Assembly: GCF_003790525.1 (NCBI RefSeq)
Contig: NZ_CP033635.1
Origin: Escherichia coli
GTDB lineage: Bacteria; Pseudomonadota; Gammaproteobacteria; Enterobacterales; Enterobacteriaceae
DNA length: 64,000 nt
Strand: one strand, 5' to 3'
Of the stretch, positions 32,340-54,263 are shown in pieces. The first letter of the stretch is position 1. Each line of letters opens with the position of its first letter. A program made the position numbers and the translations under genes. The notes beneath the pieces were generated by a model. That model saw only the letters and a program-made list of their open reading frames with translations. It was not told the origin of the DNA and did no database searches.

Positions 32340-34466
<2,127 letters not shown>

Positions 34467-34479
34467 GCCTAAGGGTTAA

Positions 34480-35721
<1,242 letters not shown>

Positions 35722-35745
35722 TTACACGTTAATTAGTTTCGAATT

Positions 35746-35772
35746 AAAAAGGGCGCTTCGGCGTCCTTTTTG
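35746..35772 (+). terminator. Intrinsic terminator after tufA
   Basis: AAAAAGGGCGC-TTCG-GCGTCC-TTTTTG hairpin with U-tract. Confidence 0.6.
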
Positions 35773-35903
35773 CTGCCCGTAATTTGAGCTCGAAATATTT
35801 AGTCGTAATTTCACTCGCTGAACTATGGCGCAAATTAAACTGTGCTATTGTAATCATAACCATTCTCATTTACACTTTGCGCAGAATTTGAACGGGAGCA
35901 ATC

Positions 35904-36098
35904 ATGTACGTTTGTTTGTGTAATGGTGTAAGTGACAAAAAAATTCGCCAGGCAGTCCGTCAGTTTCATCCGCAATCTTTCCAACAATTGCGTAAGTTTA
36001 TTCCTGTGGGAAATCAATGCGGTAAGTGCATTCGCGCCGCGCGCGAAGTGATGCAGGACGAGTTGATGCAGATGCCAGAATTTAAAGAGATTGCCTGA
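35904..36098 (+). CDS. bfd: Bacterioferritin-associated ferredoxin
   Basis: 64-aa ORF MYVCLCNGVSDKKIRQ... with [2Fe-2S] cysteine ligands. Confidence 0.95.
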   Translation: MYVCLCNGVSDKKIRQAVRQFHPQSFQQLRKFIPVGNQCGKCIRAAREVMQDELMQMPEFKEIA

Positions 36099-36170
36099 AG
36101 CCCACGCTTATTTTTTGACATCCCGCTAGCCCCATCTACGCTCTAATAGTGGAAGCGGAGGGACTATAAA

Positions 36171-36647
36171 ATGAAAGGTGATGTTAAAATCATAAATTAT
36201 CTCAATAAACTATTGGGAAATGAGCTTGTCGCAATCAATCAGTATTTTCTCCATGCCCGGATGTTTAAAAACTGGGGCCTGATGCGTCTCAATGACGTCG
36301 AATACCATGAATCTATTGATGAGATGAAACACGCTGATAAATATATCGAGCGTATTTTGTTTTTAGAAGGAATCCCTAACTTACAGGATTTAGGCAAACT
36401 GGGGATTGGTGAAGATGTCGAGGAGATGCTGCAATCCGACCTGCGATTAGAACTGGAAGGCGCGAAGGATCTCCGTGAGGCTATCGCGTATGCCGACAGC
36501 GTTCATGACTATGTTAGCCGTGATATGATGATCGAGATCCTTGCCGATGAAGAAGGTCATATTGACTGGCTCGAAACTGAGCTGGATCTCATCGGTAAAA
36601 TCGGTTTACAAAATTACCTGCAATCACAAATAAAAGTTAAAGATTAA
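36171..36647 (+). CDS. bfr: Bacterioferritin
   Basis: 158-aa [34 protein letters not shown]... Confidence 0.97.
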
Positions 36648-37111
36648 CGGCCTGCCAGCAAACTATCCCAGCCTACAACGAAACCCGCAGCCGCCAGAAA
36701 TGGCCCAAACGGCAGCGGGTTTTTTAATGACTCTTTTCCTCTCATGAGCAGACCAATAACTACGGCTCCGCAAGCGAATGAGGCAGCAAGGAAAACCAGT
36801 CGTGGCAAGAAGGTCCATGTATGCCAGGCACCAAGGGCGGCGAGAAACTTCACATCACCATAGCCTAATCCTTCTTTATGACGCAGTATGCGATACCCCC
36901 AGTAAATGACAGCGAATGTGCCGTAACCAATAATCGCCCCCCATAACGCATCGGCTAAACCGTCAGGATTACAAACCTGATAGAACAAAAGACCTGACCA
37001 GAGTAACGGGCAGGTAAATCTGTCAGGTAACAAGCCATGCTTTGCATCCCAGAAAAAAAGTAGGGCTGATAAACAAGCGTACAAAATCAGAAAGGGAAGG
37101 GTAGCGTCCAT
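36644..37111 (-). pseudogene. gspO: N-terminally truncated prepilin peptidase (A24 family); probable gspO remnant
   Basis: 155-aa ORF with LLPD and GYGDVK aspartate motifs but lacking the N-terminal domain; at the position where K-12 carries the gsp operon. Confidence 0.55.
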
Positions 37112-37299
37112 AAAACATCCTCTGTAATTGGAGTATCACCATCGAATAACTCCGGATGCTCAGCAACAGAGAAATCGCTGATTTGTTAACCTGGTCCCGG
37201 TGAAAAACGCTATCTTCACAACTTTACAAATTTCGTGGAATACAGCTCGCAATCTGCGCGTTGCGATTAATTTCTACCCGATGCTTGCGTCAGGCTCAG

Positions 37300-37801
<502 letters not shown>

Positions 37802-37821
37802 TCAGGTCATTGAGCGATTGA

Positions 37822-40217
<2,396 letters not shown>

Positions 40218-52865: not shown

Positions 52866-54242
52866 TTACAAGAAGAAAGGACTTGGCTGGAAGAGTCTTT
52901 CGACGTCGGTAATAAACTTTTTATCTGTGAGGAACATAATTACGTGATCGCCTTGCTCAATGCGCAGATTGTCATTGGCAATCATCACATCGTTTCCACG
53001 TACCACCGCTCCAATAATCGTTCCTGGCGGTAGCTTGATTTCGTCAATGACTCTGCCGACAACGCGTGAGGTGCTTTCATCACCGTGAGCAACGGCTTCA
53101 ATAGCTTCTGCTACGCCGCGGCGCAGTGAGGAAACACCAACAATATCAGCTTTTCGCACATGGCTAAGCAACGCAGAAATAGTTGCTTGTTGCGGTGAAA
53201 TCGCAATATCGATCACGCTCCCCTGAACCAGATCCACATAAGCGCGACGCTGGATCAATACCATCACCTTTTTCGCACCCATACGTTTGGCAAGCATGGC
53301 GGACATGATATTGGCTTCGTCATCGTTGGTGACAGCAATAAACAGATCAACTTGATCGATATGTTCTTCGGCCAGCAGTTCTTGATCCGACGCATCACCA
53401 AAAAAGACGATCGTATTCTGCAACTTTTCCGCCAGTTCGGCAGCGCGCTGCTGATTACGTTCGATGAGTTTGACGCTGTAATCTTTTTCCAGACGACGCG
53501 CCAGCCCTGCACCGATATTACCACCACCAACCAGCATGATCCGCTTATACGGTTTTTCCAGTCGCTGTAATTCACTCATCACCGCGCGGATATGCTGTGA
53601 AGCGGCAATAAAGAACACTTCATCACCAGCTTCAACAATGGTCGAACCTTGCGGACGAATGGGGCGATCATGGCGGAAAATTGCTGCCACACGAGTATCG
53701 ATATGTGGCATATGTTCGCGCATGGTCGAAAGTGCATTACCAATCAGCGGGCCGCCGTAATAGGCTTTAACCACAGCCAGGCTGACTTTACCCTCAGCGA
53801 AGTTTACCACCTGCAATGCGCCGGGATACTCAATCAGTCGGTAAATATTATCGATAACCAACTGCTCTGGTGCGATCAGATGATCAATCGGTACAGCATC
53901 TGAATGAAATAGCTTATCGGCATCGCGCACGTAGTCTGGTGAGCGGATACGAGCGATGCGATTAGGGGTGTTGAAAAGTGAGTAGGCTACCTGGCAGGCA
54001 ACCATATTGGTTTCATCTGAACTGGTTACAGCAACCAGCATATCGGCGTCGTCGGCACCTGCCTCCCGCAATACGCGTGGATGAGAGCCATGCCCCTGCA
54101 CGACTCGCAGGTCAAATTTATCCTGCAAGGTCCGCAGACGCTCACCGTTGGTATCGACAACAGTGATATCGTTGTTCTCGCCAACCAGGTTTTCCGCCAG
54201 TGTGCCGCCAACCTGGCCGGCACCCAGAATGATAATTTTCAT
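52866..54242 (-). CDS. trkA: Trk K+ uptake system NAD-binding component TrkA
   Basis: 458-aa ORF with two Rossmann GxGxxG motifs. Confidence 0.97.
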
Positions 54243-54263
54243 CAGTCGCGACCCGTTATCTCA

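Follow-up and report, generated by a model that had tools for sequence, protein, structure and literature searches.

When an Escherichia coli strain carries no chiA beside tufA, has the gene been lost, or was it never there? In K-12 MG1655, chiA (2,694 bp, same strand) stands between tufA and bfd, and gspO-C and gspAB stand between bfr and rpsJ. The gsp genes are those of the alpha system for type II secretion (T2SS-alpha; gspAB/gspC-O), whose substrate is ChiA (Francetic et al. 2000, as cited in later work). We addressed the question with a 64,000-nucleotide stretch of E. coli DNA from contig NZ_CP033635.1, the whole of which we call the window. Like K-12, the window has bfd and bfr as neighbours between tufA and rpsJ, with a GspO-family peptidase gene convergent with bfr. 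Unlike K-12, it has neither chiA nor gspA-M at this site: its gene order is fusA, tufA, bfd, bfr, a minus-strand open reading frame (ORF) of 155 amino acids (aa) and rpsJ, with a spacer of 182 bp between the end of tufA (35721) and the start of bfd (35904) and 843 bp between bfr and rpsJ. A first-pass annotation had reported the absence of chiA from this position and of gsp from the window, and had taken the two absences to look linked; the model it implied was loss relative to K-12. We show here that the interval is a diverged haplotype and not a deletion. Very probably it is the ancestral, vertically inherited form, the K-12 form being a xenologous cassette that replaced it, so that chiA and gsp would never have occupied the site in the window's lineage.

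Comparison of the tufA-bfd interval confirmed that K-12 has chiA where the window has its short spacer. Comparison of window positions 34400-38000 with the K-12 region by blastn yielded three blocks. The first, 34400-35773, comprises tufA and its terminator and is 99.6% identical to K-12; the last, 37306-38000, comprises the -10 box of the S10 operon promoter, the leader and rpsJ, and is 99.9% identical. Between them, bfd-bfr (35847-36631) is 77.4% identical, and the remainder of 35774-37305 has no DNA similarity to K-12 detectable by blastn or alignment. On the left, the two forms part at 35773/35774, right after the T-run of the tufA terminator; on the right, they meet again within the spacer of the S10 promoter and are the same from the -10 box on. 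We refer to the window's form, bfd-bfr-hopD in 1.5 kb, as short (S) and to the K-12 form, chiA-bfd-bfr-gspO..C-gspAB, as long (L); the latter has a length of 16.6 kb for K-12 and of 16.9 kb for UTI89.

Gene by gene, tufA of the window is 99.7% identical in DNA to that of K-12 (97.7% to that of Salmonella) and rpsJ is 100% identical (94.9% of nucleotides, nt, with Salmonella). Bfd and K-12 Bfd share 87.5% aa and 76.9% nt, and Bfr shares 88% aa over its full length (89.7% in local alignment) and 79.7% nt, so that bfd-bfr belong to another lineage than those of K-12. By Nei-Gojobori estimates, synonymous divergence (dS) between S and L reaches 1.46 in bfr and is saturated in bfd, against 0.010 in tufA and none in rpsJ; between S and the Escherichia marmotae type it is only 0.44-0.68. 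By sequence the window is E. coli: over 1.9 kb it matches SMS-3-5, whose RefSeq annotation agrees, and many other strains at 100% identity.

When K-12 ChiA and all 14 Gsp proteins were searched by tblastn against the whole 64-kb window, the sole match was that of GspO to the 155-aa ORF (40.6% identity), and gspA-M, gspAB and chiA had none. The reported absence of gsp thus stands for gspA-M; it does not extend to the GspO family, of which the window has a member, hopD, apparently under purifying selection. A residual match of this kind might be expected from simple loss, in which a K-12-like ancestor lost chiA and then, in a second deletion, gspA-M, leaving bfd-bfr and a truncated gspO. Indeed, the part of GspO with which hopD can be aligned is its C-terminal two thirds, the pattern that truncation would leave, and the literature speaks of deletion: for strain W the wording is a 'gspO-rpsJ deletion' (Archer et al. 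2011, PMC3032704). However, the bfd-bfr genes supposedly left in place differ by 20-23% in DNA and are saturated at synonymous sites between flanks that differ by less than 0.5%, and the spacers are not homologous to those of K-12. HopD shares just 40% identity with GspO and falls in a clade of its own, which spans many genera and shows signs of purifying selection. Moreover, strains of phylogroup B1 carry the same S haplotype as the window at 98.8-99% identity and not a K-12 derivative. Simple loss is therefore effectively refuted, and with it the view of the interval as two losses from a K-12-like state.

The peptidase deserves a closer look. HopD contains a Peptidase_A24 domain (PF01478, profile positions 2-103/104, E = 4e-22) and no other domain. 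In its alignment with the C-terminal part of K-12 GspO (40% aa), both Asp motifs, at D23 (…DAKHGLLPD) and GYGD86, coincide with their GspO counterparts. Its identity to the Salmonella 'leader peptidase HopD' is 64.7-68% aa, the lower figure applying to the copy at the Salmonella enterica locus L096 and 66-68% to the other named proteins. The peptidase tree separates a HopD clade of 150-190 aa, drawn from gsp-less loci of many genera, from a GspO clade of 225-300 aa, drawn from gsp-bearing loci; K-12 GspO falls in the latter, beside other chiA+gsp cassettes. Against other Escherichia, the ratio of nonsynonymous to synonymous divergence (dN/dS) of hopD is 0.09-0.21, and the gene lies convergent with bfr and directly upstream of the S10 promoter likewise in Salmonella (L096), in an E. 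marmotae-type genome (L091) and in an unclassified Escherichia genome (L093). Judged by these sequence comparisons, hopD is a maintained gene under purifying selection that encodes a predicted peptidase, and not a decaying gspO remnant. Given the type IV pilins of E. coli, PpdD-type prepilins would be a reasonable guess for its substrates.

Five HopD variants of 80-90% identity (P0003, P0009, P0010, P0014 and P0020) were considered as representatives of other Escherichia and rejected: they come from E. coli with frameshifts or from error-laden assemblies, at 95-99.6% nt identity. As for GspO, the K-12 protein (225 aa; L001:16544-17221) has the Peptidase_A24 domain only, whereas those of two chiA+gsp loci outside Escherichia (L098:19187-19954 and L099:19246-20022) have 255-258 aa and an N-terminal A24_N_bact domain (PF06750). 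The E. coli GspO thus appears to have been shortened at its N-terminus.

To see how the two forms are distributed, we used 5,426 complete E. coli genomes. The S segment (35774-37305) was found at a coverage of at least 80% and an identity of at least 95% in 2,251 of them; in 3,156 it was matched by bfd-bfr alone at ~78-79%, as expected of the L type. Sensitive blastn detected hopD together with its unique spacer in 2,255 genomes and in none of the L group, while chiA occurred in 3,163 and gspD-gspE of the alpha system in 3,134. S thus accounts for ~42% and L for ~58% of complete genomes, the markers being almost perfectly complementary, and chiA and T2SS-alpha occur together in ~99% of cases. 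Because the dimorphism is nearly clean, the absence of chiA and the absence of gsp represent one event, that is, one allele; on this point the first-pass annotation was right to connect them. Outside the L group, chiA-like DNA was seen by megablast, which a very divergent homologue would escape, in at most 7 genomes, and a second copy of chiA elsewhere in the window's strain is therefore unlikely.

Departures from the two forms were few. In some 29 genomes chiA is present but gspDE is not, suggesting a secondary loss. Single genomes (H16, H148, H157) have an IS1 insertion within chiA, an IS3 within gspD-E, or no more than 13% of gspDE left, pointing to ongoing secondary decay of the L cassette. 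Three or four genomes filed as E. coli match the S interval at only 80-90% identity and may be cryptic-clade or E. marmotae-like strains; 11 genomes have no match at all.

S is carried by SMS-3-5, which we take to be of phylogroup F, by O103:H2 and O111 strains (B1) and by O157:H7 and O55:H7 strains (E); L is carried by K-12 (A) and by UTI89 and Nissle 1917 (B2). This split matches the published distribution of T2SS-alpha, which every A and B2 genome is reported to carry but only four of the B1 genomes (Hazen et al. 2023, PMC10011798), and which O157:H7 lacks (Decanio et al. 2013, PMC3707838). These papers and that on strain W treat the difference as presence/absence or as deletion.

Other Escherichia and other genera bear on which of the two forms is ancestral. 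A scan with Bfr gave 80 loci, none of them from representative genomes of Escherichia or Salmonella; for these two genera we used loci reached by way of HopD protein clusters and exact protein matches. The S layout occurs with equal spacing in the E. marmotae-type and the unclassified Escherichia genomes, whose identities to the window are, respectively, 93.8 and 96.4% for bfd, 89.9 and 93.9% for bfr, and 86.5 and 96.6% for hopD, with flanks at 98-99.6%; the spacer between hopD and the S10 promoter (37112-37284) is 85-99% conserved across S-type Escherichia. S. enterica also has tufA-bfd-bfr-hopD-rpsJ in the same order, orientation and spacing (hopD of 468 nt overlapping the bfr stop; tufA-bfd spacer of ~184 bp), and its tufA-bfd spacer can be aligned with that of the window end to end. 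For bfd and bfr of S. enterica, identity is 85.1 and 84.7% with the window but only 78.5 and 79.7% with K-12; its HopD shares 65% aa with that of the window. In both bfd and bfr, E. coli S is nearer to Salmonella than to E. coli L (76.9 and 79.7%). Citrobacter alleles of bfd-bfr are 85-87% identical to the window. The divergence of the S form is thus graded as the species tree predicts, and its layout recurs in Citrobacter, Kluyvera, Pluralibacter and others. A cluster of S-type Bfr at 90% identity spans Salmonella, Klebsiella, Kosakonia and Enterobacter; among the members read, the corresponding clusters of L-type Bfr and GspO held only E. coli and Shigella.

Neighbour-joining trees of bfd+bfr agree with this picture. 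A clade that unites the S alleles found in E. coli, in the E. marmotae type and in the unclassified Escherichia has 100% bootstrap support (90% on codon positions 1+2), whereas the E. coli L alleles join the chiA+gsp loci of UBA5654 (L050), L098 and L099, again at 100%; monophyly of all Escherichia receives 0%. Identity to the S10 operon of E. coli is 97.2% for L098 and 96.2% for L099, compared with 97.1% for Salmonella and 99.2% for E. marmotae; the divergence of the two loci is, by this sequence yardstick, at the level seen between genera. Since S also occurs in other Escherichia and in Salmonella and Citrobacter at species-tree divergence and L groups with foreign cassettes, we conclude that S is the ancestral form. 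K-12 had served as the reference state for the missing genes; here its block is the derived one.

The opposite polarity must nevertheless be weighed. L could have been fixed in the ancestor of E. coli after one foreign acquisition, and S re-imported into B1, E and F from other Escherichia, such as the cryptic clades, through the same flanks. L is indeed as diverse as the species and occurs in the early-branching B2 as well as in A, and mosaicism within S is compatible with imports from diverged Escherichia. The example is O157:H7 EDL933 (L084), whose bfr differs from the window over 36278-36641 (95.8% nt, dS 0.23) while the adjacent bfd has a dS of 0.028, which looks like a recombination tract inside the S form. 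But the diversity of S in E. coli is deep too, with alleles differing by up to 3.2% (F versus E, 96.8% identity); the E. coli S alleles are distinct from those sampled in the E. marmotae type and the unclassified Escherichia; S occurs in F, a neighbour of B2; and several independent imports would be required. We consider re-import improbable.

A still less probable alternative is vertical descent of both forms from a time before Escherichia separated from its relatives, with balancing selection holding them and no horizontal transfer at all. In its favour, gsp-bearing and hopD-only loci occupy the same site in many genera, even within Citrobacter. Yet among the Escherichia sampled, L markers were confined to E. 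coli and Shigella, and S and L differ by more than E. coli and Salmonella do, so that the polymorphism would have had to persist through many speciations. Nor does Citrobacter itself provide a true parallel: unlike in E. coli, its gsp+ and gsp- loci (L013 and L019 versus L006 and L010) share one bfd-bfr lineage. The Citrobacter GspO (259 aa) and the HopD-type peptidases still belong to different clades. In that genus, gsp seems to be truly gained or lost, with no replacement of alleles. Two chiA+gsp species, Kosakonia oryziphila and Enterobacter sichuanensis, have bfd-bfr that are 84-88% identical to each other as opposed to 80-83% to those of their congeners, a weakly supported suggestion that the chiA-gsp cassette moves across genera together with its bfd-bfr.

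Replacement of an ancestral S by a foreign L probably proceeded as follows. An early E. coli lineage would have taken up a cassette of 16.6-16.9 kb from an unsampled member of the Enterobacteriaceae outside Escherichia, and homologous recombination in the tufA and S10 flanks would have installed it in place of the resident bfd-bfr-hopD, with tufA as the presumed left and rpsJ as the presumed right homology arm. Recombination would then have made the flanks uniform as far as the edges of the diverged core, and chiA and the T2SS-alpha genes would at no time have been at this site in the lineage of the window. Homologous replacement is likely because mobility genes are missing and the edges coincide with the ultra-conserved tufA terminator and S10 promoter and leader. 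No integrase, transfer RNA (tRNA), insertion sequence or other mobility gene is annotated in the L block of K-12 or UTI89, and with such borders the block is not a classical genomic island. The silencing of gspC-O and chiA by H-NS in K-12, typical of acquired DNA, fits a foreign origin.

Several observations weigh against this account. The donor search with GspD found none closer than 88% aa, and the nearest relatives of the L cassette are only ~70% nt identical in gsp and 81-84% in bfd-bfr and chiA. The joining of S-type Escherichia with Citrobacter and Salmonella has a bootstrap support of only 50-73%, and Escherichia beyond E. coli is represented by the E. marmotae type and unclassified genomes, E. 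albertii and E. fergusonii lying outside the sample. At 48.8%, the L block has an unremarkable GC content, and neither GC nor GC3, its counterpart at third codon positions, marks the block as foreign. Within E. coli, L has diverged as deeply as the species itself: the K-12 and UTI89 blocks are colinear and 97.3% identical, a difference of 2.7% over 16.9 kb. As S alleles differ by up to 3.2%, both forms are old in E. coli. L occurs in the non-sister phylogroups A and B2 and S in B1, E and F; this distribution is not monophyletic, and lineage sorting of an ancient polymorphism or later transfer between phylogroups is needed. Finally, recombination is the most likely mechanism as judged from the positions of the boundaries, not from an observed exchange.

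Loci for O-antigen and capsule provide a model, in which alternative, highly diverged gene sets lie between conserved genes without mobility genes and are exchanged by recombination in the flanks. S and L resemble them as diverged gene sets at one site with conserved flanks; they differ in that the flanks are the str and S10 translation operons, that E. coli has only two alleles, and that housekeeping iron-storage genes hitchhike. One may speculate further that the tufA-S10 interval is a cross-genus 'swap site' of the Enterobacteriaceae, where near-invariant translation operons serve as universal homology arms, so that an entire secretion system could pass between genera together with its substrate and the linked bfd-bfr alleles, without mobile-element machinery. 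A native and a foreign form would then have persisted in E. coli almost from the time the species arose, maintained perhaps by selection that is balancing or depends on the niche. We offer this wider idea tentatively and think it rather unlikely.

The features of the interval are listed below.

Table. Features of the tufA-rpsJ interval and its surroundings in the window (S, short form; positions are those of the 64-kb stretch)
Feature	Position	Strand	Basis or description
fusA	32352-34466		
tufA (EF-Tu)	34537-35721	+	ORF; RefSeq annotation of SMS-3-5, identical at this locus; left flank
tufA/str-operon intrinsic terminator	35745-35772		A5-hairpin-T5; fold -16.3 kcal/mol
Candidate small RNA	35745-35840	-	Position equivalent to Salmonella STnc4000; inferred only
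Haplotype-specific interval, S form	35774-37305		1.5 kb; junctions from blastn/alignment against K-12
Minus-strand -10 element	35852-35847	-	TACAAT
bfd-bfr promoter	35848-35876	+	TTGTAA, 17 nt, TACACT
Predicted Fur box	35849-35867		19-mer; 14/19 consensus positions
Motif ATAACCATTCTCATT	35856-35870		Single occurrence in the window
bfd (bacterioferritin-associated ferredoxin), S allele	35904-36098	+	64 aa; Fer2_BFD domain
bfr (bacterioferritin), S allele	36171-36647	+	Ferritin domain
hopD-type short prepilin peptidase	36644-37111	-	155 aa; full Peptidase_A24 domain; convergent with bfr, 4-nt overlap
S-specific spacer, hopD to S10 promoter	37112-37284		Alignment: no homology to K-12
S10 (rpsJ) operon promoter	37285-37312	+	TTGCGT (37285-37290), 16 nt, TATAAT (37307-37312)
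rpsJ	37490-37801	+	Right flank

Within the tufA-bfd spacer, the first-pass annotation had pointed to an iron-box-like motif, ATAACCATTCTCATT. The motif is real and lies in the spacer between the TTGTAA and TACACT hexamers of the bfd promoter, where it overlaps the predicted Fur box. A scan of the 64-kb window with the Fur consensus returned only 4 strand-specific matches, at 3 loci, scoring at least 14/19; the other two loci are 562-580 and 54225-54243 (15/19 and 14/19). The promoter with its Fur-like box forms a block of ~45 bp that is nearly invariant from Escherichia to Kluyvera and over more than 15 genera, almost the same in Salmonella and recognisable in Pantoea, Rahnella and Providencia, while the sequence upstream of it cannot be aligned. 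We take this as a strong phylogenetic footprint. The L allele of K-12 keeps the promoter architecture with other sequence (TTGAAA, 17 nt, TATTTT).

In Salmonella, bfd has been described as Fur-regulated, and STnc4000 as a Fur-repressed small RNA (sRNA) that is transcribed divergently to bfd and whose -10 element is covered by a Fur box (Colgan 2016); STnc4000 itself is documented in Salmonella only. The window has a corresponding arrangement. The minus-strand -10 element overlaps the Fur-like box and is invariant in Escherichia, Salmonella and Citrobacter, and the tufA terminator lies ~95 nt downstream of it. Since A5 and T5 flank the hairpin symmetrically, this terminator could potentially stop transcription in both directions. 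A scan with a terminator consensus overlooked it, probably because an extension of the stem consumes the T-run, and folding confirmed the hairpin. An sRNA orthologous to STnc4000 opposite bfd is plausible on these grounds, although the candidate folds no better than shuffled sequences (z = -1.3), and an Rfam scan of 35500-37600 gave no family match, so that no model backs either the sRNA or the S10 leader.

At the other end of the interval, S and L share both hexamers of the S10 promoter, and its 16-nt spacer (37291-37306) differs at most positions; the region upstream is wholly different. Because promoter spacer and upstream region both differ, the strength of the S10 promoter could conceivably differ between the haplotypes. 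One L genome stands out by its surroundings: in NZ_CP062228.1, labelled UTI89 (L083:11098-15832), the tuf gene beside chiA is preceded by tRNA genes for Thr, Tyr, Gly and Thr and by coaA, birA, murB and an rrn operon. In K-12 this context lies upstream of tufB, and it suggests either a large inversion between tufA and tufB or an assembly artefact.

In conclusion, the presence/absence pattern of T2SS-alpha and chiA in E. coli is already known. Our analysis adds to it that the chiA-less form is ancestral, that the K-12 form represents a single foreign replacement which includes bfd-bfr, and that a conserved hopD remains where the replacement did not occur, all at the confidence set out above. 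A search of the open-access literature found no description of a bfd-bfr swap with the cassette or of the chiA-less form as ancestral, which is not proof of novelty. The result refines a documented polymorphism and overturns nothing current; it should be useful for comparative and association studies. Because K-12 represents the derived state, 'missing in strain X' is the wrong framing at this locus.

The consequences reach genes other than chiA and gsp. In E. coli, bfd and bfr exist as two alleles ~12% apart in protein that are completely linked to T2SS-alpha and chiA. At thresholds of 90-95% identity, clustering treats these alleles as separate genes, and bfd and bfr therefore look like phenotype-associated accessory genes. 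A pan-genome study of mastitis strains reported bfd and bfr as 'accessory', at frequencies identical to those of gsp and chiA (0.812 versus 0.375; PMC11390585); most simply, this status is an artefact of diverged alleles clustered as separate genes. The swap-site reading, if true, would explain why bfd and bfr appear as 'accessory' fitness genes in pan-genome association studies. Phenotypes ascribed to ChiA or T2SS-alpha, such as adhesion in adherent-invasive E. coli or mastitis strains, are confounded by differences inherited along with them, among which are the alleles of bfd-bfr, the spacer of the S10 promoter, and the choice between hopD and gspO. Strains without T2SS-alpha, O157:H7 among them, possess in hopD a conserved, stand-alone predicted prepilin peptidase.

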